A stretch of 64,000 nt of DNA from Candidatus Bathyarchaeia archaeon (GTDB lineage: Archaea; Thermoproteota; Bathyarchaeia; 40CM-2-53-6). Under the pieces are notes generated by a model. That model saw only the letters and a program-made list of their open reading frames with translations, was not told the origin of the DNA and did no database searches. Of the stretch, positions 11,456-37,429 are shown piece after piece (the stretch's first letter is position 1; each line of letters starts with the position of its first letter). The position numbers and the translations under genes were made by a program. The stretch covers positions 288,001 to 352,000 of the forward strand of contig JBEKVV010000003.1 of NCBI GenBank assembly GCA_049513715.1, written 5' to 3'.

Positions 11456-13111
11456 TTGATCGACCTCATCCAAACAATAGTCATAATTCTGATTCTGGGA
11501 ACGGCGATAGCTTTAGGGCGCCTTCTCGCACCATACGTCACAAGAGTCTTCGCGCGTGCACCAAGCCGCTTTGATAATGTATTGAACCCCCTCGAGAACT
11601 GGGTCTACAAACTCGGGGGGGTAAACCCAACCCATTCAATGGACTGGAAGGAATACTTCCTATCCTTGCTCTTCGTCAACGTTATTCAAATGGGGTTAGC
11701 CTTCCTAATTTTCGTTTTCCAAGACAGACTTCCCATGAATCCTCAGGGATTCACAGGCCTAACATGGGACCTCGCCTTCATGCAAGTTATCTCATTCGCA
11801 ACCAACACTAATCTCCAGCACTACAATGGCGAAACCACACTTTCATATCTAAGCCAAATGACCGCAGTTCAATTCCTGCAATTCGCCTCAGCCGCATCCG
11901 GTATCTGTGTTGCGGTAGCATTTGTGAGAGGTTTCAAGAACGGCGCCAAAGACTTAGGTAATTTCTATGTTGACTTCATAAGATCCCTAACGAGGGTTCT
12001 CTTCCCACTATGCTTTGTAGCGTCTCTGATCTTTGTTTGGCTCGGTGTGCCTCAAACTCTCAACGGATACGCGGTTGTGAAAACCTTCGAGGGCGCGACA
12101 CAAGTAATCTTGGTAGGTCCTGTCGCGTCCTTGGTCTCAATAATGCAGATTGGCACGAATGGGGGAGGATATTATGGAGCCAATTCCGCTTATCCATTCC
12201 AGAACCCAAACCCTGCGTCGGACGTCCTTCAAATCATCTTAATGTTGCTCATGCCTACTGTGATGTGCTTCGTCTATGGGGAAGTTCTTGGAAAGAGGAA
12301 AGAGAGCAGACCCATACTTTGGGGCTCATACGCGCTCTTCGTCATCGACCTGATAATTGCATTCATCCCCAACCCCACCCTAGGCCAGGGCATGGAGGTT
12401 CGGTTTGGGGGCTTCTTCTCAGCCTTTTGGACCGTTGTAACGACAGCGGTTACAACGGGTTCGGTCAATGCTTCGCTTTACGGGATGCATCCACTCGTCA
12501 TACTTTCAGGGTTCATGGGCATGTTGATCCAAGCTACACCGGGTGGAAAGGGTGTTGGCTTGATGTACATGGTCATGTACGTCGTGATCACTGTATTCAT
12601 CGTCGGACTCATGTCAGGAAGAACCCCTGAATATTTGGGAATGAAAATCAACGGACGAGACGTCACACTCGTAATGATTGCCTTCCTGATTCACCCAGTC
12701 ATCATCCTAATTCCCACCGTGGTGGCTTACGCAAGTGGAGCCGCAAACGCAATCGGCTTGGGAGGCGACTCACTCGGTTTCACGCAGGTTCTATACGAAT
12801 TTACATCCGCCGCCGCCAACAATGGTTCGAATTTTCTTGGTGCGACAGGGAATACGCCATTCTTCAACATATCAACGGCCCTGGTAATGTTCGCAGGTCG
12901 TTACGCTCCAATGGGTGTGTTGCTTGCGCTCGCAGGGTCGATGATCGGAAGGAAGAGACATGTCGAGATTGGGTTGAAAACCGATAGCATAACGTTCTCC
13001 ATTATCCTTGTTGGTAGTACATTGATTCTTGTGGTTCTGACGTTCTTCCCGTTCCTCGCACTCGGACCAATACTCTCCTACTTCCGAGGTTTCGTAAATG
13101 GGTTCGGTTAA
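11456..13111 (+). CDS. kdpA: Potassium-transporting ATPase subunit A
   Basis: SFATNTNLQHY.GE, IGTNGGG, GG.G.G, SGRTPEYLG.KI, SAAANNGS. Confidence 0.96.
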   Translation: MIDLIQTIVIILILGTAIALGRLLAPYVTRVFARAPSRFDNVLNPLENWVYKLGGVNPTHSMDWKEYFLSLLFVNVIQMGLAFLIFVFQDRLPMNPQGFTGLTWDLAFMQVISFATNTNLQHYNGETTLSYLSQMTAVQFLQFASAASGICVAVAFVRGFKNGAKDLGNFYVDFIRSLTRVLFPLCFVASLIFVWLGVPQTLNGYAVVKTFEGATQVILVGPVASLVSIMQIGTNGGGYYGANSAYPFQNPNPASDVLQIILMLLMPTVMCFVYGEVLGKRKESRPILWGSYALFVIDLIIAFIPNPTLGQGMEVRFGGFFSAFWTVVTTAVTTGSVNASLYGMHPLVILSGFMGMLIQATPGGKGVGLMYMVMYVVITVFIVGLMSGRTPEYLGMKINGRDVTLVMIAFLIHPVIILIPTVVAYASGAANAIGLGGDSLGFTQVLYEFTSAAANNGSNFLGATGNTPFFNISTALVMFAGRYAPMGVLLALAGSMIGRKRHVEIGLKTDSITFSIILVGSTLILVVLTFFPFLALGPILSYFRGFVNGFG

Positions 13112-13172
13112 TTCTGAGAGGTGAATCGAGACGTCAACCAACGATCAACGGCCTAGTCTGCGGGCAGGGACT

Positions 13173-15266
13173 ATGTCCAGCAAGACCTTACTCGACTCAA
13201 TAGTGAGGCTGAACCCCGCATCATTGATTGCGAACCCCGTTATGTTCATCGTTGAAATCACATTCTTCATCGTGGCAGCGATGGCCGTCTACCCGCAAGG
13301 ATTTCTGCCCGTAGCGAGTCCAAGTGAACGGATTTTCTACGTTGAAGTTGCAGCCATTTTGCTGATTACAGTTTGGTTCAGCACACTCTCGGATTCACTC
13401 GCCGAAACTCAAGCAAGGAACACTGCGAACAGTCTTAGGAAGCTCGAAACGGAAACGATGGCCAAGAAAATCGTGGCGGAGGGTAGAGATCAAGGAGAAA
13501 GATCAACGGTCCTTACTCCCTCTACTCAGTTGCGACGAGGGGATATGATCCTGCTGGAGAAGGGAGACCTGATTCCCATAGATGCAGAGGTAACTGAGGG
13601 GATAGCAATGGTGGATGAATCTCTTCTCACAGGTGAATCGGTTCCCGTCAGGAAGGCCTCTAGCGATCCACTCATCGGAGGTTCAAAACTCATCAGCGAC
13701 ACATTAACTGCAAGAGTCACAGTGAACCCTGAAGACAGTTACATCAACCAAATGATCCGGTTGGTTGAATCAGCAAAGAGACCGAAGACTCCGAACGAAC
13801 AAGCAGTGGTAGTAGTTCTGATTGGACTTACGGCCATTTTCACAATAATAATTTTCGCACTTCTTGGAATGTCGGTCGTGCTCAGTCTCGGCGCCGACCT
13901 CTCAGTCCTAATTGCACTATACGTTTGCCTTCTTCCAACCACGATTGGCGCGCTGCTTCCAGCAATCGGCCTCTCGGGAATGTCTAGGTTGTATGGAAGG
14001 AAAATTGTTGCAAAGTCAGGCAGGGCAATTGAGACTGCCGGCGACACGGACACGATCCTTCTCGACAAGACCGGCACGATAACGGTCGGGAGCAGGCAAG
14101 CAATCGGTTTCATACCCTTTGGTGCTCATTCTGAGCAGGAAGTCGGCGAGGCAGCGTTCCTGTCTTCTTGGCATGATGACACTCCAGAAGGGCGAAGCAT
14201 AATCAGGTTAGCCTACACTGGCCGCCTGATACCCAAGGAATTGAACGACCTAGCACTTTCAGAATCCTACGAGTTCTCAGCCACGACCAGAACGAGCGGC
14301 GTGAAATTCACCAGTGGTACTGGTTTCATGCTACCGAAAGGTGGCGAGGAGCGAGCTCGATTTAGGCGAAAATTCACGGCCTCCTTGAGCAGCTTGGAAG
14401 GGGGCCAGGTTGAAATCTTGAAAGGAGCTCCAGACGCGATAAAGGCACTTGCGGCCTCGACACCTCCTGACTACGACACTGTCATTAACAAAATCTCCGG
14501 CGAAGGCGATAGTCCCGTAGCGATCTGCAAGAACCGTGAAATAATCGGCATGATTCGTTTAAGAGACGTTTTGAAGACGGGTATCAAAGAAAAAATCCAG
14601 GCTGTCAAAGCGATGGGTATCCGCCCGGTGATGATAACTGGGGACCAACCACTCACTGCAAAAAGCATCGCATCTGAAGTTGGTATAGACGAGTACGTAC
14701 CGCAAGCAAAGCCTGAGGACAAGCATGGAATTGTTCTCCGCGAGCAAGCGAACATGAGGATTGTTGCCATGATAGGCGATGGGACGAACGATGCCCCTGC
14801 GTTAGCCGTGGCTGATGTAGGCCTCGCCATGAACTCTGGAACGCAAGCGGCGAAGGAGGCTGCCAACATGGTTGACCTTGAATCTAACCCTGCAAAGGTC
14901 ATTGAAGTCGTGATGCTTGGGAAACAGCTACTCATGACACGAGGAGCAGTTACCACATTTAGTATTGCAAATGATGTTGCGAAATATTTCGCAATAGTCC
15001 CGGTCATGTTTGCAGTTGTACCCGAGCTGCAAGCCTTGAACATCCTCGGGCTGGGGTTGCATAGCGCTGTTCTGTCTGCGTTGATTTTCAACGCAATCAT
15101 AATTCCGCTGCTGATCCCTTTGGCCATGAAAGGCGTCTCATTCAAGCCCTCAGACACAATGACGCTGTTTCTGAAGAATACGATGATCTACGGTGTCGGA
15201 GGAGTGATAGTGCCGTTTGTAGGAATCAAGTTGATAGACATCCTTCTACGGGCGATTCATGTTTAG
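13173..15266 (+). CDS. kdpB: Potassium-transporting ATPase subunit B (P-type)
   Basis: TGES, CLLPTTIG, DKTGT, TPEGRSI, KGA, TGD, GDGTNDAP, SIANDVAKYF. Confidence 0.97.
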   Translation: MSSKTLLDSIVRLNPASLIANPVMFIVEITFFIVAAMAVYPQGFLPVASPSERIFYVEVAAILLITVWFSTLSDSLAETQARNTANSLRKLETETMAKKIVAEGRDQGERSTVLTPSTQLRRGDMILLEKGDLIPIDAEVTEGIAMVDESLLTGESVPVRKASSDPLIGGSKLISDTLTARVTVNPEDSYINQMIRLVESAKRPKTPNEQAVVVVLIGLTAIFTIIIFALLGMSVVLSLGADLSVLIALYVCLLPTTIGALLPAIGLSGMSRLYGRKIVAKSGRAIETAGDTDTILLDKTGTITVGSRQAIGFIPFGAHSEQEVGEAAFLSSWHDDTPEGRSIIRLAYTGRLIPKELNDLALSESYEFSATTRTSGVKFTSGTGFMLPKGGEERARFRRKFTASLSSLEGGQVEILKGAPDAIKALAASTPPDYDTVINKISGEGDSPVAICKNREIIGMIRLRDVLKTGIKEKIQAVKAMGIRPVMITGDQPLTAKSIASEVGIDEYVPQAKPEDKHGIVLREQANMRIVAMIGDGTNDAPALAVADVGLAMNSGTQAAKEAANMVDLESNPAKVIEVVMLGKQLLMTRGAVTTFSIANDVAKYFAIVPVMFAVVPELQALNILGLGLHSAVLSALIFNAIIIPLLIPLAMKGVSFKPSDTMTLFLKNTMIYGVGGVIVPFVGIKLIDILLRAIHV

Positions 15267-15278
15267 GAGATTGCTAAT

Positions 15279-15722
15279 ATGAACAAGCATGGTTATGGTG
15301 CCGCCGTCAGACTGGCAATTATCTCATTAGCATTGTGTGGCCTAGTGTTTCCCCTGGTCGTTACAGGGTTTGCGCAACTATTTCTCCCGAATCAAGCAAA
15401 CGGGGGACTTATCACATTCCACGGCCGTTTCGTGGGTTCCTATTTGATTGCACAGAACTTCAACTCCCCGATGCTCTTCCACCCAAGAAACCAAACATAC
15501 TCCGCTTCAGGCGTGGACCCGGACATTACCCTCCAAGACGCCTATTCTCAGATTCCGAGGATACAAGCTACGACTGGAATTCCTCCGGATGCGCTGAAAC
15601 AGATAGTTGATGAGAACGTCGAGCGAACTTTATGGATCGCTGGCGAGCCGTACGTCAACGTACTCAAACTCAACCTGGTACTGATCGAAAGATACCCGGC
15701 AATCTACCAATCGTTCAGCTGA
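15279..15722 (+). CDS. kdpC: Potassium-transporting ATPase subunit C (short form)
   Basis: N-terminal TM helix, QANG, GS.LIAQ.F, SASGVDPDI, EPYVNVLKLN. Confidence 0.92.
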   Translation: MNKHGYGAAVRLAIISLALCGLVFPLVVTGFAQLFLPNQANGGLITFHGRFVGSYLIAQNFNSPMLFHPRNQTYSASGVDPDITLQDAYSQIPRIQATTGIPPDALKQIVDENVERTLWIAGEPYVNVLKLNLVLIERYPAIYQSFS

Positions 15723-16909: not shown

Positions 16910-17402
16910 GGCAAATCTCCGCGCGAGCAGAGCATTACAGCACTATAAACACTCTGCTGTTAGCATGCGTCTCTTCGGAATCTACCACCTCATTTTCCGA
17001 GACTTCTAATTTTCCTATACGATTAGTTGGAATGACATTAAACCAAGCGCGAGTGAGAAGTGGCAGCTCCAGAGGGATTTCCACCCAAGTGGGTCCAAGT
17101 CCCTGCCTGATGTGCGATATCAAGCGGGTAAGCTTGTGCGGGAAGGATTTTGATCACAATTTACGAGTGCATATAAGGCGGTGATTTTTCCTTAACAAAG
17201 TTTCAACTTGGAAAGCATCGGAAAGGAAGCGTTAGTTTTCCCGTATCAGCTTGCCCTTGATGCGCGTGTTACTGTTTTCGTCGACTGATACGATCTTCTC
17301 TCCTTTCTGATTTAGGAAAGCCAACGACCTTCCCTCCGTCGCCCTGGAACGCGGTTCAGTCGCACATGCCAAAATCATGAACGTCGGAACTTTGCTAGCC
17401 AG

Positions 17403-18861: not shown

Positions 18862-18885
18862 GGCGGGTCCGGAGGGATTTGAACC
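18862..18885 (-). repeat. att-like 24-bp copy of the tRNA-Lys 3' end
   Basis: ggcgggtccggagggatttgaacc is identical to 27620-27643. Confidence 0.9.
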
Positions 18886-19310
18886 TGTTTGGGTCTAAAT
18901 CCTGCTGAAAGTAGTTTCTTGCGAACGCGGCTACGTCAACCGGAATATTCCGAGATTGTGTCCTCTATACACATGTGCGTCAGTACGTTAGGTCCGGAAT
19001 GCCTCATAACGCCGTTTCAATCCTTATGCCGGAAGCAACGGTCCAACTCTGATGAGCTTGTCGCCTCAAAAACAATGGATCGCCATGATGCTTTGGGCAC
19101 AATCAACCTGAATCAGGTTGGGTGCTCAGACAGCTTTCATTTCCGAGTGTACACACATTGGAGTCCAGGCAAGATGATTGTGACAACGCTTCGAAAAGTT
19201 ATGAGAAATCAATTCGCTCGATGGTTCTAGCTGACCCTATTCCTTGACTTTCAGAGCGGAGGCTTTCGACCCTGATTTGTCAGAGCATACGAGCGCTAAG
19301 CGAGACTTAC

Positions 19311-20150
19311 CTACGATAGTTTGCTTTTCAGCGAGGCGACGAATTCGTCGGGCGTCAACGCGATCGGCATTTGAAGCCCCTGTTTTCTCAAGTCGCATGA
19401 TAATCTGGTCGCAAGTGGGGGTCTCATGCGAACCCGTTCCATCAGCTCCTCGTCGCTGAATAGGTCTCGGGTTGGAAGGTCCCTGAGAATCTGCCCGTGA
19501 TCCACCAGAATAACCCGATTCGCATATTCAGCGACCAATTTCATGTCGTGAGTAATCATTATGACAGTTAAACCAGTTCGATTCAGGTCGGCGATAAGGC
19601 CAGTCAGATACCTCGAATTCCCGTAGTCCTGGCCTGTTGTCGGCTCATCCAGAAGCAGAACGCTAGGCCGCGAGACCAAAACAGTAGCCGCAGCCAATCT
19701 ACGTCTTTGGCCTCGACTGAGCGCTTGGGGATGTACGTCCTTATACATGGCCAAGTGAACGGTCTCCAAAGCCTCTGTGGCAATTGCGTTCACCTTCTCC
19801 TCAGAAACCCCCATGTTTCTGGGACCGAAAGCCACCTCATTCCAGACACTTCGCGTGAACAACTGATGATCGGGATTCTGTAGCACAAAACCAATCCTTG
19901 ACCCAATCTCACTCAACTTGGCTTCCCGCGTGTCTACTCCATCGACGAGAATTCTTCCTCTAGCAGGTTTGTACAACCCAACGATCAGAGACGCAAGAGT
20001 GCTCTTTCCAGAACCATTTTGCCCAATTAGCCCGACAAATTCCCCGCGCTTGATTTCAGCGTCGGCGCTTCGGATTGAGTACTCCTCGTTTCCCGGGTAC
20101 CTGTACCACACGTCCTCCATCTTGACAACAACGTCAGTCACTTTGGCCAC
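19311..20150 (-). CDS. ECF transporter ATPase (A' component)
   Basis: GQNGSGKS, QNPDHQLF, LSRGQRRR, LLDEPTTGQD, ITHD. Confidence 0.93.
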   Translation of the reverse strand: MAKVTDVVVKMEDVWYRYPGNEEYSIRSADAEIKRGEFVGLIGQNGSGKSTLASLIVGLYKPARGRILVDGVDTREAKLSEIGSRIGFVLQNPDHQLFTRSVWNEVAFGPRNMGVSEEKVNAIATEALETVHLAMYKDVHPQALSRGQRRRLAAATVLVSRPSVLLLDEPTTGQDYGNSRYLTGLIADLNRTGLTVIMITHDMKLVAEYANRVILVDHGQILRDLPTRDLFSDEELMERVRMRPPLATRLSCDLRKQGLQMPIALTPDEFVASLKSKLS

Positions 20151-21054
20151 TCACCTTGAGTTTAGGATCAGGTTGTCGTCGCACTAGACCCTGAACAAGC
20201 GTTCTGATTTCATCAAATGTGATGGCCGAGACTGGTTCTTCATTTCGGCCGCGAAGTGAGGTCAGTGATTTTGATATGAGCGCGGCTTCTGGGATTTCAA
20301 TTCCAATCGAGCTTAGATAATCCGTGTGGTCCCTCAGAAGCTCCCGTGGTGGCTTGTCGAGAACAATCTGGCCTTCGTGCATGACGACGACCCTGTCAGG
20401 CATAAGAATGTCCATGATCCGCTCCAAACGGTGTTCAATGAGAAGTATGGTCATCTTCTTCTCATGGCGCAGTCTCTGAATCGTGGAAAGAACTTCGCTA
20501 GTGCCAGCCAAGTCCAAGTCTGAAGTTGGCTCGTCCAGTATCAATATACTCGGTGCAACCGCCAGGTTCGACGCGATTGCCACTCTCTGCTTCTGGCCAC
20601 CAGAAAGTGCGAAGACGAAACGCTCACTGAGGTCACTGATTTCTATATTTGTCAATATCTTGCCGACTCGTTCCCTCATATCCTCCTTGGGAACCCCTCG
20701 GTTCTCAAGCCCGAAGGCCACCTCATCTACTACCCTGAGGCAGAACAGTTGATTGTCGGGATTCTGGAAAACCAGCCCTGCGTGTTCCGACAGCTTTGCA
20801 ACCGAATTCTCCCTCGTGTCATAACCGTTCAAAAGAACCCGGCCTTTCATCTCGCCTGAAATGTTGTGCGGAATCAAACCGAGCAGGGCCAAGGCCAGCG
20901 TTGACTTCCCGCAGCCGCTCGGTCCCACCATCACAACAAACTCCCCTTCCGTCACGGTGAGATTTACGTTCTTGAGGATGCTCGGCGGAGTGTCGCCTTC
21001 TTTCAGCGGCGGATACGAGAAAGAAAGGTCTTGCACAACTACAGACATAAACAA
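20134..21054 (-). CDS. ECF transporter ATPase (A component)
   Basis: GPSGCGKS, FQNPDNQ, LSGGQKQR, LDEPTSDLD, IEH. Confidence 0.93.
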   Translation of the reverse strand: MFMSVVVQDLSFSYPPLKEGDTPPSILKNVNLTVTEGEFVVMVGPSGCGKSTLALALLGLIPHNISGEMKGRVLLNGYDTRENSVAKLSEHAGLVFQNPDNQLFCLRVVDEVAFGLENRGVPKEDMRERVGKILTNIEISDLSERFVFALSGGQKQRVAIASNLAVAPSILILDEPTSDLDLAGTSEVLSTIQRLRHEKKMTILLIEHRLERIMDILMPDRVVVMHEGQIVLDKPPRELLRDHTDYLSSIGIEIPEAALISKSLTSLRGRNEEPVSAITFDEIRTLVQGLVRRQPDPKLKVSGQSD

Positions 21055-21184
21055 CTCCCTCCTTTCCGTTCAAAGTCAGCGCCGTGTATTTCCATAATCT
21101 ACAGCACTTCAGCTTCCATCAATCGATCTTATGCTGCTCATCGCTAGAGTAGCTTTCTGATGAGCACAGCCTCCATGGATTTGG

Positions 21185-22015
21185 CTACGAAGGGGTATGA
21201 TACGTGAACCCGACGCCTGCGAGAAAGCCGTAGGAGAACCTGAGGTACGTTAATGCCGCAGCTGTGACCAGGATGGCTCCGACTATGATCCAGTCGGTTC
21301 TCTTCATCGAAAGGTCTCTGAAAGCAGTTCTTTTGGTTGTGCCGAATGCCTTTATCTGAATCGCGTTCCCCATTTCTGTGGACCTTCGCAGTGCGCCTAT
21401 CATCAATGGTTCCAGTATGAGTTTCATCTTGTACAGGTTGCGAGCAAACCGTCCACTCTTGTGGCCCCTGAGGTCTATGGCGTTGCTGATGTTGATATAT
21501 TCCTCCAAGAACAAAGGCACGAGCCTAACGGTAACCGTAACCCCAAACGCTAGGACCGAAGGGAGGCCGATCTTGGACAGGCTGAGCAGCATTTCACTCG
21601 GGTCAGTTGTTGAAACCAAGACGACCGAGATAAGGAACGCCAAAGTTGTCTTGAACGAAATGACCAACCCCCACAACACTCCCTCCAAGTAGACCGGCAA
21701 ACCGAATATCGTGCCCAGCAGGACCGTGTTTGGAGGACCACCACCAGTCCTTAATCCAAACGTACCCAACACCGTGAGTCCCAAAATCGTTGAGAAACAA
21801 AACCCAGCCATGTACCATCGAGTGATTTTCGGCACGCGGGCTAGAACGATGAGGATTATCGCGAAAATGTGCAGTGCCACGTAGACCCTGATATCATTAA
21901 CAAGAACAAATGCGATGTACATTATGGAAGCTATCAGCAGTATCTTGACTCTAGGGTCCAAAGCATGCAGAAAGGTCTTCTTGTCGAGGCTCCAAAAGGT
22001 CAGTGGGGACGCCAT
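21185..22015 (-). CDS. ECF transporter T component
   Basis: LHALDPRVK, TTDP, AIDLRG and AIQIKAF coupling helices. Confidence 0.9.
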   Translation of the reverse strand: MASPLTFWSLDKKTFLHALDPRVKILLIASIMYIAFVLVNDIRVYVALHIFAIILIVLARVPKITRWYMAGFCFSTILGLTVLGTFGLRTGGGPPNTVLLGTIFGLPVYLEGVLWGLVISFKTTLAFLISVVLVSTTDPSEMLLSLSKIGLPSVLAFGVTVTVRLVPLFLEEYINISNAIDLRGHKSGRFARNLYKMKLILEPLMIGALRRSTEMGNAIQIKAFGTTKRTAFRDLSMKRTDWIIVGAILVTAAALTYLRFSYGFLAGVGFTYHTPS

Positions 22016-22125
22016 TCAACTTACCACATACTCATGAATACCCGTCCCACTCACCGCCCTTGATTGGTGGGACCACAGGCGGACGCCGCCCTACGTAGGT
22101 GGACATCCGCTTGGGCAGCTACGAC

Positions 22126-22707
22126 TCACTTGCCTATCAGTGGTTTGATTGCTTTTCCAGTTCGGAAACCCAGCAGACCCATCACCGGTCCAGCGATGAC
22201 GAACCCCGCTCCCGCAATCGCTAGGACATCTGCCGGAAGTACAGTGGCGAAAAATACTGGCATAATGATGCCGAATCCTATCGCGAAAGCAGCAATTCCG
22301 TCAACCAGACCTCCAATGATAACGCTCCACCAGTTGTCCATGTAGTGGCCGGAAGAGAACCAAACAGCGATTATCGCGATTTCCGCTATGACTCCCTGGC
22401 CTATGTTCTGCATAGCCCAGATTGGGCTACCGCCGAAGAACAGCAGATTGACCAGCAGCTGGATGAGTGTGAAAATGATCACGGTGAAAGGCTTCCGAAC
22501 GATCGCGGCGGTCACACAGAACAGGAAACTGAACTGCATTATGAACCACCACTCACCAATCGGCGTAGGAAGCGGCAGCATAATTCCAATCATGTTGATT
22601 ACCCTGCTTATGGCAGCAATAACAGCGATAACAATTATGTCTGGTATCGATAACTGCCAGAGCTTCCTCGAACCTCTCTGCGTTTGCATCATAGAACGTC
22701 GAGCCAT
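22126..22707 (-). CDS. ECF transporter S component, substrate unknown
   Basis: DIIVIAVIAAI start, VRKP loop, ~6 TMs; first gene of an S-T-A-A' operon. Confidence 0.8.
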   Translation of the reverse strand: MARRSMMQTQRGSRKLWQLSIPDIIVIAVIAAISRVINMIGIMLPLPTPIGEWWFIMQFSFLFCVTAAIVRKPFTVIIFTLIQLLVNLLFFGGSPIWAMQNIGQGVIAEIAIIAVWFSSGHYMDNWWSVIIGGLVDGIAAFAIGFGIIMPVFFATVLPADVLAIAGAGFVIAGPVMGLLGFRTGKAIKPLIGK

Positions 22708-22923
22708 AATCTGACTCTGTGCTGGCTTTTAGATTATCGTATATTCACAGAAGAATAATCAGACATGTATATTCAGACACAAGTTTGTATATACCCCAAG
22801 GCTCAATGCGTCAGAAATACGCATAGAAAACGGGAAGATGTACGAACAGGGGGTATCTAAATGAAACTGTGGACAAAGATTTTTACCTAAGTTTGAACGC
22901 ATTGTTGCCGGAGCCTGTCAAAC

Positions 22924-23391
22924 GTGTTACAGAAAATGGAATTAGAGTGGCCGGAAATCAAAAACAAAGTCACCGCGTCGCTACTCAAGGAAGAAGAACC
23001 CGAGCTATGCGAGGCTCTCTGGAGGAAGATCGAGACTCCTGCGAAACTATTCTGCCGGCACACCTTATCGACTGGTTATGTGTTCATGGGTGAACAGCGT
23101 CCCCCGAGACATCCTGTCCAAGCTGGCACACAGGCCGTGCCTTTGGGCAGGAAGGAATGGTTGCCATCTAGGATTGAGCCTGGGAGCGTAATCTATTCCG
23201 GTGTCGGAGGATACGGCGGAATTACCGTCTACTACGGCCCGTCCACTACGCCTCTGCGAGAATCAGGCTCGCCGGTCGCGAAAGTCGATAGGAATCAGTT
23301 GGACGATCTGGTGAGAGGCGGGGAGTACGTTTTCAATGCTCAGTACATGACGCATCGGCCGTCAATTATGATTGTTAGAAGGGTGAAATAG
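22924..23391 (+). CDS. McbB/cucumopine synthase N-terminal (cyclophilin-like, DUF3830-like) domain as a separate gene
   Basis: ELEW...VTA.L....PELCE.LW, H...TG, YYGP.T, PV..V....DDL...G, final VRR match the recalled McbB N-domain. Confidence 0.75.
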   Translation: MLQKMELEWPEIKNKVTASLLKEEEPELCEALWRKIETPAKLFCRHTLSTGYVFMGEQRPPRHPVQAGTQAVPLGRKEWLPSRIEPGSVIYSGVGGYGGITVYYGPSTTPLRESGSPVAKVDRNQLDDLVRGGEYVFNAQYMTHRPSIMIVRRVK

Positions 23392-23392
23392 G

Positions 23393-23980
23393 ATGGCAAA
23401 AGATTGGCACGAGGTCAAGGATCAACTCGAAGCTGAGTTGGATAGGATTTGGTGGGACGAACCAGAAGAGGTTACGATGTCCAAACTGGGTATCTTCCCC
23501 AGTGGAGCGGGCGTCTACAACCAAGTGTTGGGGAACCTCTTCTTCCAACTCACCGAGACGCAAGCAATGGGCTGGGCGACTGCGGAACCCATTGTGAAGC
23601 AGCTAATTGCGAATCCGACATTCACGCTGGAGCAGTGCGAGATTGTGTGGAAGTACCTTACTGTCAATATGACTAAGCTCCTTGGAGGTATGGACCCGCC
23701 GAGGTGTCCTGCTCCTTGGCTCAACCTTCCAAAGCTGCTGCAGTTTTCAAATGACATTGTCAATTCCTTCGAGACCGTCAAAACCAAGGAAGAGTTGTCC
23801 GATCTCTTGTGGAGCTGGTTCAACTACGTGAACTGTGTAAATCGCTGGTTCGCGTTGGCGTTTCCGTGGCACCTAGGAAAAATGTTGCCGCAGGTGACGC
23901 CCAAGGACGTCGAACAACTGGCCAGATTATCGGGGATGAAGGTTCAGAAGGAGGCGCTACAAGTTGTGGAACAAAGCTAG
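23393..23980 (+). CDS. Cucumopine synthase/McbB C-terminal helical-bundle domain as a separate gene
   Basis: E.DRIW..EPEEV....G...SGAG.Y.Q and YVN..N.W....FPWHLG signature motifs. Confidence 0.82.
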   Translation: MAKDWHEVKDQLEAELDRIWWDEPEEVTMSKLGIFPSGAGVYNQVLGNLFFQLTETQAMGWATAEPIVKQLIANPTFTLEQCEIVWKYLTVNMTKLLGGMDPPRCPAPWLNLPKLLQFSNDIVNSFETVKTKEELSDLLWSWFNYVNCVNRWFALAFPWHLGKMLPQVTPKDVEQLARLSGMKVQKEALQVVEQS

Positions 23981-25085
23981 AGGATCCATCAAGCTCCTAA
24001 TGACGCCTGGGCCCCTCGAGGTTTCTCCGCGGGTCCTTGAAGCAATGTCGAGGCCCCAAAGTTACTCATACTACAAGAACTTTCTCGACTTATTCGCGGA
24101 AACGACGGAGAAGATGAAGAAGATCTTTCAAACGAAGAATGACGTGCTCTTAATGCAAGGAGAGGGAGTCCTTGGCCTGGAGGCCGCAGTCGCCAACACC
24201 ATTGACCCAGGCGACAAGGTACTCGTTTTGGACTCCGGACCTTTCGGCAAATGGTTTGGAGAGTACGTTGTGAACTTCGGAGGACAAGTCTCTGAGATGT
24301 CAGTGCAATACAACGACGCGATTGACCCCGGCCGGCTCAAAGAGAAACTGGAGACGGAGAAGGACGTCAAAGCAATGACAGTTGTCCACTGTGAAACACC
24401 CGCCGGCATCATGAACCCAATTCGAGAACTCTGCCCGCTCGCGAAAAAGAAAGGAATCCTAACAATAGTTGACGCCGTCGCATCAGTTGGTGGCGTAGAT
24501 GTGAGGCCAGACGAGTGGGGAATCGACATTTGCATTACTGGTTCCCAGAAGGCTATTTCCTCAACACCTGGTCTGACCATGGTATCAATGAGCCCCGAAG
24601 CATGGGAAGCCGTGGACAAGAAGAAGAAACCCATCAAGAACTCCTACCTGAGCCTAACTGATTGGAGAGATGCGTGGATAAAGCACGGGCATTTTCCTTA
24701 CACGCCCTTCATCTCTGAAATCTGTGGGCTTGCAGAAGCCGAAGATGAACTGTTGGAGGAGGGACTCCAGAACTCATTTGCAAGGCATCATGCAGCTGCG
24801 GAAGCGTGCAGAAAAGGCGTGGATAGGCTTGGGATGAAGCTTTGGCCGAGAAGACGGGAAATCTGCGCGGACACAGTAACTGCCATTCAGATCCCTGACG
24901 GTTACACTGACATGGGCATCATCAATACTATGGTCGAGAAATACGGGGTTCTCATCAGCGGCGGACCAGGATTAGAGAAACCATTGCTAAGAATCGGCCA
25001 CATGGGATATGCAGCGACAGTCATGAATGTCACCACAACAATGTGGGCTCTAGAACAAACTCTGAAGGAACTCAAGAAAAACTAG
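23964..25085 (+). CDS. Class V aminotransferase, pyridoxamine-pyruvate aminotransferase-like
   Basis: TPGP, GEGVLGLEAA, YNDAIDP, HCETP, DAV.S, SQK lysine, LSL.DW..AW, FPYTP.ISEI.GL, RIGHMG. Confidence 0.85.
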   Translation: MWNKARGSIKLLMTPGPLEVSPRVLEAMSRPQSYSYYKNFLDLFAETTEKMKKIFQTKNDVLLMQGEGVLGLEAAVANTIDPGDKVLVLDSGPFGKWFGEYVVNFGGQVSEMSVQYNDAIDPGRLKEKLETEKDVKAMTVVHCETPAGIMNPIRELCPLAKKKGILTIVDAVASVGGVDVRPDEWGIDICITGSQKAISSTPGLTMVSMSPEAWEAVDKKKKPIKNSYLSLTDWRDAWIKHGHFPYTPFISEICGLAEAEDELLEEGLQNSFARHHAAAEACRKGVDRLGMKLWPRRREICADTVTAIQIPDGYTDMGIINTMVEKYGVLISGGPGLEKPLLRIGHMGYAATVMNVTTTMWALEQTLKELKKN

Positions 25086-25291
25086 CCACTTGGAACCATC
25101 AACAAAGAGCCAGCAACGTTACGGAGTCTCTGCGCCACGAATTCCCACTACCAATCTGCGTCGATGAAGCCGTGAAGGGGGCTTCGGCCTTTCGGCAAGC
25201 ACGATGTGGAAGTTCGACCGGCGGAGCGGAGGAAAGTCCAAATCCGCTCATTTCCATATATAATGCGCCTGCATAGTGGTTTTGACGCCTC

Positions 25292-25765
25292 TTGACTGGC
25301 AAAGATCGATTGGACAAGATCGACCGCAGCTTACTGAATAGTCTCCAACGAGACAATCGGATTCCGCTGGATCGTCTGGCTCGCAAACTCAGGATACCCA
25401 AATCCACGATTCACTATCGGATACGTCGCCTCGAAAAGGCGGGAATCATCAAAGGATACGGTGCCAGGCTCGACGCAGCCCAACTGGGACACGACTATCT
25501 TGGAATAGTCGCAGTTCGTGTAACATCTGGACCACAGGGTGCCGAACGAATCGGAAAGCGATTGGCTGAGGTTAACGGGGCATGGGCAGTTTACTATGTC
25601 TTGGGAGACATAGACTTCATAGTGGTAATCAGGGCACATGACCGGGATGACTACATGAGGAAGTTGAACGAAATCTTCAACGTTGGAGACATTGAACGAA
25701 CAACTACTCACATCGTCGCGCGAGTATTCAAAGACCCAATACTCGATCCAACAGTGCCCTTATAG
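25292..25765 (+). CDS. Lrp/AsnC family transcriptional regulator
   Basis: LDKIDR..L..LQ.D.R HTH, RIRRLEKAGIIKGY, GDIDF RAM domain. Confidence 0.93.
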   Translation: MTGKDRLDKIDRSLLNSLQRDNRIPLDRLARKLRIPKSTIHYRIRRLEKAGIIKGYGARLDAAQLGHDYLGIVAVRVTSGPQGAERIGKRLAEVNGAWAVYYVLGDIDFIVVIRAHDRDDYMRKLNEIFNVGDIERTTTHIVARVFKDPILDPTVPL

Positions 25766-26114
25766 CCTGTTAAGCGCCGACCCTCTTCAGGTAATTGCCA
25801 AAAACGAACCCCTGTAAATGAAGCATCTCCGATTCGCACCCAAGCACCACCGTTCGTCTATCATACAGCGCAGGAACCAAAGCCCTCCGTAGACACGAGA
25901 CAGTCCGGTTCTAATCATCGAGTTTTCATGATACAAACGGAACAAAGTACAATATAGCCAGGGGATTGTGCACCACCTTCCCACATTCCGCAGCATAAAT
26001 TGTACAACGTTCAACTGACGGAAAATACCTCATATATACTTCATATGCGGAAGATTTACAGTCTCTAGGGGTGCGAATGGAAAAAGAGTACCTATTGCCG
26101 ATGGAGCGAATGTT

Positions 26115-27464
26115 ATGAAAGGAGCAGTTACTACGGCACCGTTGGTAGGTAACGTCGCCACTGGGGTCACACAGATATCTCTGCCAGTTGAGGAATTGCC
26201 GCGCAAATGGTACAATATCATCCCAGACTTACCCAAGGCGTTGCCTCCGCCGAAAGAACCCGAAACCGGGCCCTCGCGGGCTGAGTTTCTGGGCAGAACA
26301 ATGATCCATGAATGCCTGCGGCAAGAAGCCTCCAATGATCGATGGATTCCGATTCCAGAAGGAGTCAGAGACCTCTTAATTCAAGCCGGGCGACCTCGAC
26401 CACTCTACAGGGCCCGAAGGCTTGAGAATAAGTTAGGGCTGAAGAAGGTGAGGCTCTACTACAAGCGTGAAGACCTTTCCCCGACTGGTTCTCACAAAGT
26501 CAACACGGCCTTGCCTCAAGCATACTACGCCGCTAAAGAAGGAAAGAGCGTTCTCGTAACGGAGACGGGGGCTGGGCAATGGGGGACCGCATTGTCCTAC
26601 GCCGCGTCACTGATGGGGCTGTCGACGGTCGTATTCTGGGTGAGGGCCGTTCACGATTGGAAGACAGGGAGACGCACTCTAATGAGACTGTACGGTGCGA
26701 AGGTCTATGCCTCACCGAGTGACCAGACATCTTTCGGAAAGAAGCTTCTCTCAAAGGACCCCAAACATCCCGGGTCGCTGGGAATAGCGGTCTCAGAGGG
26801 CCTTGAGTACACGGAAGGTTCGCCTGACCGAGTCTACTGCTTGGGTTCGGTTCTGAATCACGTTCTGATTCATCAATCCATCATCGGTCTTGAGGTCATC
26901 AAGCAATTCGAACAGGTGGATGACTCACCCGACCTTGTCGTTGGTTGCCTCGGTGGCGGCTCGAACTTTGGCGGCATCGCGCTGCCTTTCATGGGCGAAG
27001 TTCTTGCCAAGAAGAGAAAATGCGAATTCCTCGCCTCCCAGTCAGAGGCGGCGCCGAACCTTCTGAAGGGAGAGTACAGGTATGATTTCGGTGACACTGC
27101 TGGCCACACGCCCCTTATGATGATGTACACTCTAGGCCACGAGGCGGTGATGCAGCCTATTCGGTCGGATGGCTTGCGTTACCATGCGGCGGCTCCTATC
27201 ATCAGCGCGCTGAGGGCGCAGGGCCTGCTTCGGGCAGTTGCATACCCCGCCGACGAGGTCGCAGTCTTTACGGCGGCAAGACTGTTCCTTGAAAGTGAAG
27301 GTTGGCTCATCGCAGGAGAATCCGCACACGCCGTCAGAGCCGCAATCGATGAAGCTAAACGAGCTGAGTCAAAGGGCGAAGAGAAATGCATACTGATCAA
27401 CATCAGCGGACACGGCTTCCTTGATATCGACGCATACAGCTCTGTACTGCATCTGGACGGCTAA
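26115..27464 (+). CDS. trpB2: Tryptophan synthase beta chain, TrpB2 type (no trpA)
   Basis: P..WYNI.PDLP..LPPP, RP.PLYRA, PTGSHK, TETGAGQWG, GSLGIA.SE, LGSVLNHV, GGGSN, GLRYH, SGHG. Confidence 0.93.
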   Translation: MKGAVTTAPLVGNVATGVTQISLPVEELPRKWYNIIPDLPKALPPPKEPETGPSRAEFLGRTMIHECLRQEASNDRWIPIPEGVRDLLIQAGRPRPLYRARRLENKLGLKKVRLYYKREDLSPTGSHKVNTALPQAYYAAKEGKSVLVTETGAGQWGTALSYAASLMGLSTVVFWVRAVHDWKTGRRTLMRLYGAKVYASPSDQTSFGKKLLSKDPKHPGSLGIAVSEGLEYTEGSPDRVYCLGSVLNHVLIHQSIIGLEVIKQFEQVDDSPDLVVGCLGGGSNFGGIALPFMGEVLAKKRKCEFLASQSEAAPNLLKGEYRYDFGDTAGHTPLMMMYTLGHEAVMQPIRSDGLRYHAAAPIISALRAQGLLRAVAYPADEVAVFTAARLFLESEGWLIAGESAHAVRAAIDEAKRAESKGEEKCILINISGHGFLDIDAYSSVLHLDG

Positions 27465-27618
27465 GTACGGCGGTCCATCCGGAGACTGTTCTACAGGGCC
27501 GAGATGCTGCGTCCCATTTCCTTCATGTACTTTTCATGTTCTTCTACGATTTTGCCGAATCTGTCGTCATCGTAAGACCATCGATGCGCGAGAATAGAAG
27601 GATTCAAACCTAATTTGA

Positions 27619-27763
27619 TGGCGGGTCCGGAGGGATTTGAACCCTGCCGGCCACGAAATGGTGGCTCTCGACCTTCGGGTGTCCCTCAAGCCTGCGTTAA
27701 GAGCTTCGGCCCAGCATTCATCAATGCCCAATCCGCCGCTCTACCTGGCTGAGCTACGGACCC
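27619..27763 (-). tRNA. tRNA-Lys(CUU) with three introns (27705-27732 at 30/31; 27681-27697 at 37/38; 27644-27666 at 51/52) and encoded CCA
   Basis: Removing the three BHB-flanked introns gives a 77-nt cloverleaf: GGGUCCG UA GCUC AGCCAGGUA GAGC G GCGGG CU CUU AA CCCGA AGGUC GAGGG UUCAAAU CCCUC CGGACCC G CCA. Confidence 0.9.
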
Positions 27764-35188: not shown

Positions 35189-36589
35189 TTGGAGCATAGA
35201 CAACCTCTTGTGAGAGAACTTGCCGAGTTCGTTGTGAAGGCAAAATTCACAGACCTATCAGACATGGCCAAACAGGCGTTGAAGATTCGTGTCTTAGACG
35301 CGTTAGGTTGCGCGATCGGGGCTCTTGAGGGTGAGCCGATTCAGATGATTCGGGCGCAGTTGGAGGATTTCGGCGGCAAACCCCACTGCACTCTAATCGG
35401 AGGTGGGAAAACCGCACCGGACCTCGCCGCGTTCTACAATGGCGCTCTCGTGCGCTACTTGGATTTTAATGATAGTTACTTGGCGAAAGGGGAGACGTGT
35501 CACCCAAACGATAACGTGGGCGCAGTGCTCGCGGCGGCGGAGTACGCGAAAGCAAAGGGCCGCGACTTCCTCCTTGCCCTAGCCATAGCATATCAGGTTC
35601 AATGCCGCCTTAGCGATGCTGCGCCGGTTCGGAGTAAAGGCTTCGACCACACAACCCAAGGCGCGTACGCGGTTGCAGCAGGCGTCTCAAAAGCTCTCGG
35701 CCTGGATTCTGAGAAGACTGCTAATGCGGTGGCAATCAGCGGCACCGCCCTAAACGCCCTCAGAGTGACCAGAACCGGCGCGCTTTCTCATTGGAAAGGC
35801 CTCGCCTACCCGTTCACGGGTTTCGCTGGAACCCACGCAGCTTTCCTAGCCATGCGCGGCATAACTGGCCCACCAGAGGTGTTTGAAGGAAACAAGGGGT
35901 TCATGGACGCGATAGCCGGCAAATTCCAAATCGACTGGTCCAACGAGAACTTAGAGCACGTGACGAAGACCATAATCAAGAAATACAATGCGGAAGTGCA
36001 CTCGCAATCCTCCATCGAGGGAATTCTGAACCTCCAAAAGGAGTACGGCTTCAAAGCCCACGATATAGACAGAATTGAGATTGAGATTTTCGACGTAGCC
36101 TACAACATCATAGGTGGCGGCGAGGAAGGCTCGAAGGTTCAGGTCAGGACGAAAGAGGAGGCGGACCACAGCTTACCCTACATCGTCGCGGTCGCAATCC
36201 TAGATGGCACCGTAATGCCCCCACAATACAACCAAACCCGAATTGCCAAGGAGGACGTTCAGCAGTTACTACGAAAAATCACCGTCCGTCCCCGGGACGA
36301 TTACAGTAAACGGTTCCCAGACGAAATGCCCACGCATCTGATTGTTCATTTGAAAGACGGCCGAATCGCGGAGAAGGAGAAACGAGATTACGAGGGGTTC
36401 TTCACACGCCCCATGGGTTGGGAAGGGGCCACAGTGAAATTTGACCGGCTAAGCGAACGCTACCTGAATAAGGCGCTCCGAAAGCGAATCATTGACACCG
36501 TCGCCAACTTGGAACAAGTAAATGTAACAGCTTTAACCAAGGTACTCGCAACCATCAGCACCCCGAAAGCAAGGAAAAGGAAGAAGTGA
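35189..36589 (+). CDS. MmgE/PrpD family protein
   Basis: LD.LGC..GA, RYLDFND, HP.DN, GFDHT, LSHWKG, FEG.KG, ADHSLPY. Confidence 0.92.
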   Translation: MEHRQPLVRELAEFVVKAKFTDLSDMAKQALKIRVLDALGCAIGALEGEPIQMIRAQLEDFGGKPHCTLIGGGKTAPDLAAFYNGALVRYLDFNDSYLAKGETCHPNDNVGAVLAAAEYAKAKGRDFLLALAIAYQVQCRLSDAAPVRSKGFDHTTQGAYAVAAGVSKALGLDSEKTANAVAISGTALNALRVTRTGALSHWKGLAYPFTGFAGTHAAFLAMRGITGPPEVFEGNKGFMDAIAGKFQIDWSNENLEHVTKTIIKKYNAEVHSQSSIEGILNLQKEYGFKAHDIDRIEIEIFDVAYNIIGGGEEGSKVQVRTKEEADHSLPYIVAVAILDGTVMPPQYNQTRIAKEDVQQLLRKITVRPRDDYSKRFPDEMPTHLIVHLKDGRIAEKEKRDYEGFFTRPMGWEGATVKFDRLSERYLNKALRKRIIDTVANLEQVNVTALTKVLATISTPKARKRKK

Positions 36590-36595
36590 ATTGAG

Positions 36596-37429
36596 TTGAG
36601 CAGCAACCGAGCCTTCCCATTCATCCGCATGAACGAGCGTCAAGGGAAACCGCGGACGCGCGGTATTACGGAAATCCGAGGCCCCTACTACACCGTTATG
36701 GGCAAACGGTACCTGGAAGATGTCCTCGAAACGATGGGCGAGTATGTGGACTCACTGAAGTTCGCCGCGGGCTCATTCAGCCTGATGCGCCGCGACGTGT
36801 TGAAGGAAATTATCGAAACCGCCCACAAGTACAATGTATTGGTTTCCACGGGCGGCTGGATGGAATACGTCCTCACGCAAGGCCCGTCCGCTGTTGAGCA
36901 ATACATCAAAGAGTGTAAGGAAGTTGGTTTCGATATTATCGAGCTGTCCAGCGGCTTCATCACCTACCCCATCGACGACTGGATACAACTCATAGACCAG
37001 GTCAGGAGGGCGGGTTTGAAGGCGAAGCCTGAGGTCGGAATCCAATTCGGCTCCGGAGGAGCCACATCAATTGCCGAACTGGAGGCGGAGGGAACACAAG
37101 ACCCCGCTTGGGCAATCTCGAAAGCCAAACGCTTCCTGGAAGCGGGCGCCTACATGATCATGATCGAGTCGGAAGGAATCACAGAGAACGTGAAGGCCTG
37201 GCGGACCGATGTGCCGCCGAAACTCATCGATGCGCTAGGCTTGGAGAAGATTATGTTTGAGGCCGCCGATCCGGAAGTGTTCGGCTGGTACATCAAGAAC
37301 TACGGGCCCGAAGTCAACATGTTCGTTGACCACAGCCAGATTGTACACCTAGAAACCTTGCGTAGGGGTATCTGGGGAACGAAAGACCTCTGGGGACGCG
37401 TCCTTACCTACAAAGGCATGAAAAAGTAG
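36596..37429 (+). CDS. comA: Phosphosulfolactate synthase family (ComA/HSA32-like)
   Basis: KPR.RG.T, VD.LKF..G, STGG..E, GFD.IE.S.GF, EAGA..IMIESEG, FEA, GPEVN, LE.LR.G. Confidence 0.88.
   Translation: MSSNRAFPFIRMNERQGKPRTRGITEIRGPYYTVMGKRYLEDVLETMGEYVDSLKFAAGSFSLMRRDVLKEIIETAHKYNVLVSTGGWMEYVLTQGPSAVEQYIKECKEVGFDIIELSSGFITYPIDDWIQLIDQVRRAGLKAKPEVGIQFGSGGATSIAELEAEGTQDPAWAISKAKRFLEAGAYMIMIESEGITENVKAWRTDVPPKLIDALGLEKIMFEAADPEVFGWYIKNYGPEVNMFVDHSQIVHLETLRRGIWGTKDLWGRVLTYKGMKK

Follow-up and report, generated by a model that had tools for sequence, protein, structure and literature searches.

Two adjacent genes within a 64,000-nucleotide stretch of the genome of a Candidatus Bathyarchaeia archaeon (contig JBEKVV010000003.1; the whole stretch is called the window here) together encode the McbB/KslB Pictet-Spenglerase fold, one gene its barrel half and the other its helical half. 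The first, ORF1 (22924..23391, + strand), specifies the cyclophilin-like beta-barrel subunit, and the second, ORF2 (23393..23980, + strand), the helical-bundle subunit. The fold is known; its pairing with a vitamin B6 context is new. Division into two genes is the rule in a clade that extends well beyond the archaea, and for this clade we consider a catabolic role somewhat probable. The window copy, as described below, has threonine in place of the catalytic glutamate of the fold.

The fold assignment is supported at the level of sequence, profile and structure. In a sequence search of the Protein Data Bank (PDB), ORF1 (155 residues, GTG start) matches residues 21-160 of the McbB chain (PDB 3X27, the Marinactinospora thermotolerans Pictet-Spenglerase that condenses tryptophan with oxaloacetaldehyde or methylglyoxal) with E = 3.8e-4, and the corresponding profile comparison gives E = 6.6e-15. 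The structure predicted for ORF1 (pLDDT 89) finds McbB as its top Foldseek match (E = 1.3e-9, TM 0.78), followed by KslB and then by cyclophilin-like proteins. ORF2 (195 residues, separated from ORF1 by 1 bp) matches residues 185-327 of 3X27 with E = 1.5e-6, passes the Pfam Cucumopine_C model PF18631 (59.9 bits, cut-off 27), and its predicted structure (pLDDT 90) also has McbB as first match (E = 4.2e-5, rmsd 1.7 Å). The first-pass annotation, made from the sequence alone, had read the two genes as the N- and C-terminal domains of McbB/cucumopine synthase, and that reading holds. Of the two profiles that it suggested for checking this, Cucumopine_C is passed by ORF2, but DUF3830 matched nothing in the host genome; ORF1 has zero matches across Pfam and NCBIfam and is placed by the PDB sequence, profile and fold searches only.

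Modeled together as two copies of each, the proteins form a 2+2 complex with a score of 0.88, against 0.39 for the best control, with at least 92% of contacts shared between runs and partner pLDDT of at least 86; the score mark is reached by 116 of 157 solved pairs and by 2 of 215 mismatched pairs, counts that are only roughly applicable here, and likeness to solved McbB dimers may explain the pass. (ORF1 loops 45-52 and 106-111 sit at the interface of the model, a placement that the same likeness may cause.) The prediction supports the binding of ORF1 to ORF2, two copies of each, in an assembly that recreates the McbB/KslB dimer, in agreement with the association foreseen in the first-pass annotation. 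With McbB the pair shares both domains, barrel then helical bundle, together with the H-x-x-x-S/T-G loop, the YG-x-x-(E) interface loop and the FPW motif. Unlike McbB, it is encoded by two genes, is related at only 21-27% structural identity, has threonine at the position of Glu97, belongs to a separate clade (SH-aLRT 100) and has an importer/salvage context where that of McbB is a biosynthetic cluster. KslB and AsKslB (PDB 9NS6, 9K0A and 9UWA), whose substrates are tryptophan and 2-oxoglutarate, have the same two domains and the type of dimer predicted for the window pair; in contrast, the KslB domain order is swapped, and the window copy keeps none of the KslB residues Glu274, Arg256 and Lys264.

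The split characterizes the family. At least 242 relatives of ORF2 were found that stand alone. The barrel gene is present in 63 of the 67 loci from GTDB genomes. Of 143 loci, 130 have it immediately upstream, and a contig end cuts the remaining 13. (The 143 are made up of 67 GTDB loci, one plasmid locus and 76 metagenome loci, less one without a scorable ORF; two identical copies of the island and 29 loci with short flanks are left out.) Among the best 150 barrel relatives, clustered at 50%, 130 have at most 200 residues and 17 have at least 300, and there are two natural fusions inside the split clade (P0231 and P0334). A frameshift artefact as the origin of the split is ruled out by the 130 of 143 loci with two genes. 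In a quick tree built from 91 helical domains, which is the source of all the phylogenetic statements made here, 66 domains form one clade (SH-aLRT 100) apart from the fused McbB, KslB and cus types. Its members come from Bathyarchaeia, methanogen-like archaea, Bacillota, Synergistota and Pseudomonadota, so that to call the pathway archaeal, as was done at first, is too narrow.

Several individual members of the family deserve mention in their own right. L021, L043, L141, L142, L156 and L201 hold the pair two or three times over, or additional helical genes, side by side, which would fit paralogs specific for diastereomers or substrates. P0272 (499 residues) is a fused McbB-fold enzyme with an additional C-terminal domain that by eye is RidA/YjgF-like (imine hydrolysis) and would fit an imine-releasing reaction. 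Distant subfamilies are also represented in the host's order and genus, by a DUF3830 and helical pair beside LLM genes (L134:6786-7658, genome G297) and by a helical gene that adjoins the gene of the urocanase HutU (L132:1420-1860, genome G218).

The argument for catabolism comes from gene neighbourhoods. Neighbours were counted within 3 kb at the 112 loci with enough flank, which fall into 24 groups at 80% identity, and compared with a background of 2723 host-genome windows. Histidine-utilization (Hut) genes occur at 7 loci, in 6 of the 24 groups (background 1.0%). Solute importers occur at 24 loci in 12 groups (background 3.4%) and carbonyl-handling aldehyde/alcohol oxidoreductases at 15 loci in 9 groups (background 8.6%), the importer and oxidoreductase counts being biased upward against the background because the reference proteins came from the same loci. 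Identities were determined for the HutH, HutU, HutI and FtcD neighbours. The histidase gene hutH comes immediately after the pair in L060, L065, L151 and L153, and in L156 it has a pair on either side; FtcD/FchA genes adjoin the pair in L053 and L059. Dihydroxyacetone kinase (DhaKL) and importer genes are found near the pair in one archaeal locus (L060:351-10839, the one with HutH just referred to) and in three Blautia loci (L046, L049 and L050), hinting at a histidine-triose adduct. An importer, the enzyme, a histidase and a carbonyl-disposing enzyme make up the layout that would be expected of the fold used in reverse, and reverse use is what we infer from it. Relatives of the two-piece enzyme usually adjoin genes of uptake and breakdown, and the opening of an adduct is therefore likelier than its building. 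The largest group of loci (L003, L006-L015, L019 and many metagenome loci), mostly from methanogen-like Euryarchaeota, has the pair alone, with a recurrent functional neighbour in 0 of 47 loci, and may represent a housekeeping form for damage repair.

A parallel is offered by Agrobacterium plasmids. Plasmid pRi1724 carries a more distant split pair (L069:13552-14519; WP_010900212.1 and WP_010900213.1, with a 2-bp gap) in which the glutamate is kept. The two genes are located 630 bp beyond the right border of the T-DNA, with mikimopine synthase on one side and an amino-acid ABC importer on the other; an enolase-superfamily fragment and a hydantoinase/oxoprolinase gene are found near them. Mikimopine and cucumopine are described as Pictet-Spengler products of histidine and 2-oxoglutarate (PMC12536604), and the T region is reported to be usually adjoined by catabolic genes (PMC8087989). 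Judged by its location, the pRi1724 pair is a candidate for the first step of mikimopine catabolism. An A. vitis plasmid (L071:6291-8605) has, among hutCHFIGD and outside the T-DNA border, two fused paralogs of opposite domain order; one of them is nearly identical to a cucumopine-synthase-like gene at 19881-20915. These relatives of mikimopine and cucumopine synthase are approximately 25% identical to ORF2, occupy a different branch of the tree and keep the glutamate. A split, probably catabolic clade of the McbB fold was not found in the literature searched, where 'retro-Pictet-Spengler' combined with enzyme and bacteria retrieved only a chemistry review. A paper by Hooykaas et al. (2022, Plasmid), which is cited for the cucumopine catabolic region in a bioRxiv preprint (10.1101/2023.06.20.545721), may cover the plasmid paralogs or propose a role for them.

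The window copy departs from its family at the active site. Profile column 109 of ORF1 aligns with KslB Glu274, and the catalytic glutamate of the fold (McbB Glu97, KslB Glu274) is replaced there by threonine, a change that the first-pass annotation had missed. Among 140 aligned rows, this position is glutamate in 136, aspartate in one and a gap in two, with threonine in the window copy only; in 149 distant representatives it is glutamate in 110, gapped in 32 and something else in 7. All five members of the window's 90% cluster have Thr109, including one that is approximately 93% identical with 10 differences, and both frames are intact; a sequencing error is ruled out by this agreement. KslB Glu274, which corresponds to McbB Glu97, is reported to be essential, with E274Q dead (PMC12012969), and the same is reported of AsKslB Glu276 (PMC12547825) and Fcs1 Glu100 (PMC10372676). 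The position of Trp137, tryptophan in 135 of 135 other rows, is phenylalanine. The carboxylate loop is kept: ORF1 H46-T-L-S-T50-G51 aligns with HAVVSG (KslB V223-S225), and its H, S, T and G are invariant across 41 rows. Arg256 and Lys264 of KslB, which bind 2-oxoglutarate, are not kept in the window copy or in the clade, aligning with a hydrophobic residue and a glycine, and a glycine-rich GGYGG stands where KslB has charged residues. Since the equivalents of Glu109, Trp137 and Arg256/Lys264 are lost while the carboxylate loop stays, the window copy does not count as a canonical Pictet-Spenglerase; its residues still suggest a pocket that would take an alpha-amino-acid derivative whose carbonyl part is different.

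ORF2 has its own changes, D55E, W/K62A and H92N, which are common to P0169 and to P0002, an 82% identical relative. The window copy, P0169 and P0002 form a subclade (SH-aLRT 100) with longer stem branches leading to it (0.21 and 0.14). Of the 33 differences from P0002, no more than 3 touch the 59 conserved columns (p 0.002). The total departures of the window copy from consensus number 5 and 3, and as many are found in 24 of 222 and 26 of 147 family rows.

ORF2 overlaps by 17 bp a class V aminotransferase gene (23964..25085, + strand), whose TTG start at 23964 is backed by orthologs with their start in the same position. The best PDB match of the enzyme is 2z9u (E = 1.5e-72, ungapped over most of 352 residues), with the next match 23 orders of magnitude away (1.1e-49). 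2z9u is the pyridoxamine-pyruvate aminotransferase (PPAT) of Mesorhizobium loti. The G66-E67 motif, D170, K196 and R343 of the island enzyme align with the G-E motif, Asp, Lys and C-terminal Arg of PPAT. Its QGEGV aligns with HGEPV of 2z9u, and Glu68 in the phosphate-binding loop of PPAT is what blocks the phosphate site. The G-E motif is not PPAT-specific, since 12 of 16 aligned paralogs from the host's class have it. Unlike PPAT, the island enzyme has proline for the Arg of the SSGRG motif, and the island holds no other gene for B6 degradation: only the ECF importer and the McbB-fold pair adjoin the aminotransferase. A second cluster in the host (L120, G000:C4:64000-83999) carries two more PPAT-like aminotransferases along with ECF, LLM, AOR, XDH-type and APC permease genes, and clusters resembling it recur in L121-L128; PPAT-like genes are present in 12 of the 58 other genomes of the host's family, beside ECF, LLM, AOR or XDH genes.

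Downstream lie an Lrp/AsnC family regulator gene (25292..25765, + strand; PF13404 and PF01037) and the gene for a stand-alone TrpB2 (26115..27464, + strand), as had been annotated at the outset. TrpB2 passes TIGR01415 (548 bits, cut-off 519) and NF009057; its SHKVN, ETGAGQWG and SGHG motifs are intact and there is no loss at invariant columns. It differs from the general case in being an island-borne third copy in its genome, 84% identical to the resident copy on contig C1 of a gene common in the genus, and in its host, where TrpA has no match in the genome. According to an older survey, TrpB2 is a poor serine deaminase and has no second neighbourhood that is conserved (PMC1854888).

The B6 context is a matter of what the host lacks. 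Neither PdxS nor PdxJ has a match in the host genome, which is 99.4% complete with 8.79% contamination, and PdxS is found in 1 of the 59 genomes of the host's family. From this gene content the host appears to be unable to make vitamin B6 and to need it from outside. (It has many enzymes that need pyridoxal 5'-phosphate, PLP, despite there being no PdxS and no clear pyridoxal kinase found.) PLP is reported to form Pictet-Spengler adducts with aromatic amino acids non-enzymatically and to be depleted thereby (PMC9121088); histidine and formaldehyde are reported to give spinacine in cells (PMC9814826). A literature search combining Bathyarchaeia, pyridoxal and auxotroph retrieved none. Salvage of B6-amino-acid adducts, one of two functions offered by the first-pass annotation, has circumstantial support in the missing PdxS and PdxJ and in the single PdxS among 59 genomes, but the case is drawn from one island.

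That island occupies 8.8 kb (18862-27643) between copies of a 24-bp direct repeat that match at 24 of 24 positions. The left copy (18862..18885, att-like) perfectly repeats a tRNA 3' end, and the right copy (27620-27643) is the 3' end of an intron-containing tRNA gene (27622..27763, - strand; RF00005, 33.9 bits), found by Rfam and missed by ARAGORN, with an anticodon read by eye as CTT (Lys). The same tRNA is flanked by other genes in 11 of 11 genus relatives fetched, two of which have a 25-bp repeat of their own: it is an integration hot spot. The leftward cargo encodes an ECF transporter, with ATPases A' (19311..20150, - strand; PF00005, E = 1.5e-30) and A (20134..21054, - strand; PF00005, E = 1e-30), the T component (21185..22015, - strand; PF02361, E = 1.3e-30) and an S component (22126..22707, - strand) that is divergent from the enzyme genes. 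The nearest named models of the S component are YkoE-like (PF09819; structure TM 0.75 to a cluster of this family) and MptD/Trep_Strep-like (PF09605, E = 0.011). The ORF1/ORF2 pair, the aminotransferase, Lrp and TrpB2 complete the cargo, and the early description of a tRNA-integrated island with its own ECF importer is confirmed by the perfect repeat and the four ECF genes within it. No integrase is found among the ORFs between the repeats (ORF list and Pfam scan), and the island has no genes for tailoring or export; composition leaves it unmarked (GC 0.513 versus 0.509). A promoter and terminator scan is near chance, and across three intergenic regions there is no common or palindromic operator and none joining trpB2 to the operon. 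Three short contigs that are at least 99% alike come from one sequencing run and are uninformative on expression. The pair profile matches 33 of 401 genomes of the class, 30 of them in one other family; in the host's own family it matches 1 of 58 other genomes, weakly, and the S component matches 0 of 58. Left of the island by 1.7-1.8 kb there are a degenerate third tRNA-end repeat (79%; 17062-17085) and a 32-bp repeat (88%; 17145-17176), suggesting an older insertion with a metallophosphoesterase and a membrane protein. Elsewhere in the window, to judge by the translations, 11456-15722 appears to hold KdpABC-like potassium pump genes and 35189-37429 an MmgE/PrpD-like gene beside a ComA-like gene.

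The island may accordingly be pictured as an uptake-and-salvage module. From gene context, the split clade would run the Pictet-Spengler reaction backwards, returning the cyclic adduct of an aromatic amino acid and a carbonyl to an imine that is then hydrolysed. The amino acid would be histidine in the best-resolved relatives; once freed it would pass to the Hut pathway or the cell pool, while a neighbouring enzyme would remove the carbonyl and pull the equilibrium. On the island, the ECF transporter would import a B6-containing compound and the 2+2 complex would bind and open a pyridoxal-amino-acid adduct, with proton transfer possibly by the phenol/pyridinium of the substrate or by a relocated acid (Glu113, or Glu55 of subunit 2). 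The aminotransferase would interconvert pyridoxal and pyridoxamine, and Lrp would control the island; TrpB2 is probably a co-acquired duplicate for indole salvage in a host without TrpA. Pyridoxal is the most likely carbonyl because the pocket is remodelled (Glu109Thr, Trp137Phe, Asp55Glu and His92Asn) and the neighbouring enzyme is PPAT-like. That the window copy is a catabolic or salvage enzyme acting on an imported amino-acid-aldehyde adduct is plausible and the best of the readings, and we hold it tentatively; that the adduct is one of B6 is questionable. The whole chain, in which split McbB-fold proteins are widespread retro-Pictet-Spenglerases by which bacteria and archaea win back the amino acids and carbonyls held in cyclic adducts (Agrobacterium opines included) and the glutamate-free archaeal variant is a B6-repair enzyme freeing pyridoxal from dead-end adducts for a B6 auxotroph, is a little more questionable again.

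Much weighs against this scheme, in addition to the limits stated above for the complex score and the neighbour counts. The opening of adducts by the complex is a proposal. A glutamate that is essential for synthesis should be needed for the reverse reaction too, and ORF1 has Thr109. Against two relatives of 93-94% identity, purifying selection does not reach significance (p 0.08 and 0.27); non-consensus residues of the window copy are found at I12L, K83E and A94T. The aminotransferase scores 358.6 bits on the PPAT model NF046070, for which the cut-off is 600, and on the oxo-acid side it reads GGPGLEK, without a basic residue, where 8 of 8 aligned orthologs have GG(F/Y)(R/K)ETK; the residue lost is the second oxo-acid-side arginine of PPAT, Arg336. 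No clear pyridoxal kinase is found in the host genome, which yields one weak PF08543 match and three PfkB kinases. None of the neighbours described above is seen in the four archaeal groups that are largest outside the host's branch (0 of 47, 0 of 12, 0 of 5 and 0 of 4 loci), and the host's own hut genes are on a different contig from the island. The linkage to PPAT, TrpB2 and ECF-S genes, which had been expected to recur, does not: it is seen beside the pair in 0 of 67 GTDB loci, in 2 of 78 metagenome loci (from the best 80 of 168), both 100% identical copies of the island, and in none of the 29 class loci with short flanks. Sought in the opposite direction, beside 13 PPAT-like, 11 dph5/tRNA and 6 TrpB2 control loci, the pair was found in 0 of 30.

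The lost residues also raise the possibility that the pair is a pseudo-enzyme, whose complex folds and may bind an adduct or vitamer (as a carrier, or as a sensor with Lrp) or is in early decay, leaving the ECF transporter, the aminotransferase and TrpB2 as the useful genes. A position that is threonine against 136 glutamates, one aspartate and two gaps in 140 rows, and whose glutamate is essential in three characterized enzymes of the fold, is what such a protein might be expected to show, as are the lost Trp137, the longer stem branches of the subclade and the few window-only changes at conserved columns. Yet both frames are intact in every cluster member, the pocket changes of subunit 2 are common to the 82% relative with conserved columns spared, and the departures from consensus lie inside the family spread; we regard a pseudo-enzyme as doubtful, though a serious rival to the salvage reading. 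Catabolism of something other than B6 is unlikely, in our estimate: the substrate would contain another heteroaryl aldehyde or amine (a breakdown product of the thiamine pyrimidine or a pterin, for example), or the chemistry would be a new one of imines. The YkoE-like and MptD-like models nearest to the S component point that way, as do the aminotransferase score below the PPAT cut-off, the G-E motif in 12 of 16 paralogs that lie beside LLM, AOR, XDH or glycine-cleavage-like genes, and the GGYGG that replaces KslB charged residues. They must be set against the match of the aminotransferase to PPAT, which among solved structures leads the next by 23 orders of magnitude, and against the motive that an apparent B6 auxotrophy provides.

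Biosynthesis was the other function offered by the first-pass annotation, as a conserved pathway to a beta-carboline or opine-like product: TrpB2 would supply tryptophan and the aminotransferase pyridoxal or a 2-oxo acid, and the complex would condense them. The characterized members of the fold are all described as synthases (PMC12012969 and PMC12536604), and three enzymes, including a TrpB2 that looks intact, do share one island. Against that stand the absence of the catalytic glutamate, replaced by Thr109, and of the Arg256/Lys264 equivalents, an importer instead of an exporter, the lack of tailoring and export genes, neighbours of the family that are importers and catabolic genes, a linkage that does not recur, a TrpB2 duplicating a genus-common gene that is found elsewhere without the pair, and the lack of a shared operator motif joining trpB2 to the operon. 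A conserved biosynthetic pathway is not upheld, and we consider biosynthesis by the island very unlikely.

In the literature searched, the characterized enzymes of the fold build alkaloids or opines. Should the reaction run backwards in the split clade, it would provide the first step that has been lacking in the use of histidine- or tryptophan-carbonyl adducts, which arise spontaneously, and would put a name to a candidate for mikimopine breakdown on pRi1724. The window copy would add to this a vitamin-recovery route for B6-dependent sediment archaea, and would constitute a natural test of whether the fold can work without its glutamate.

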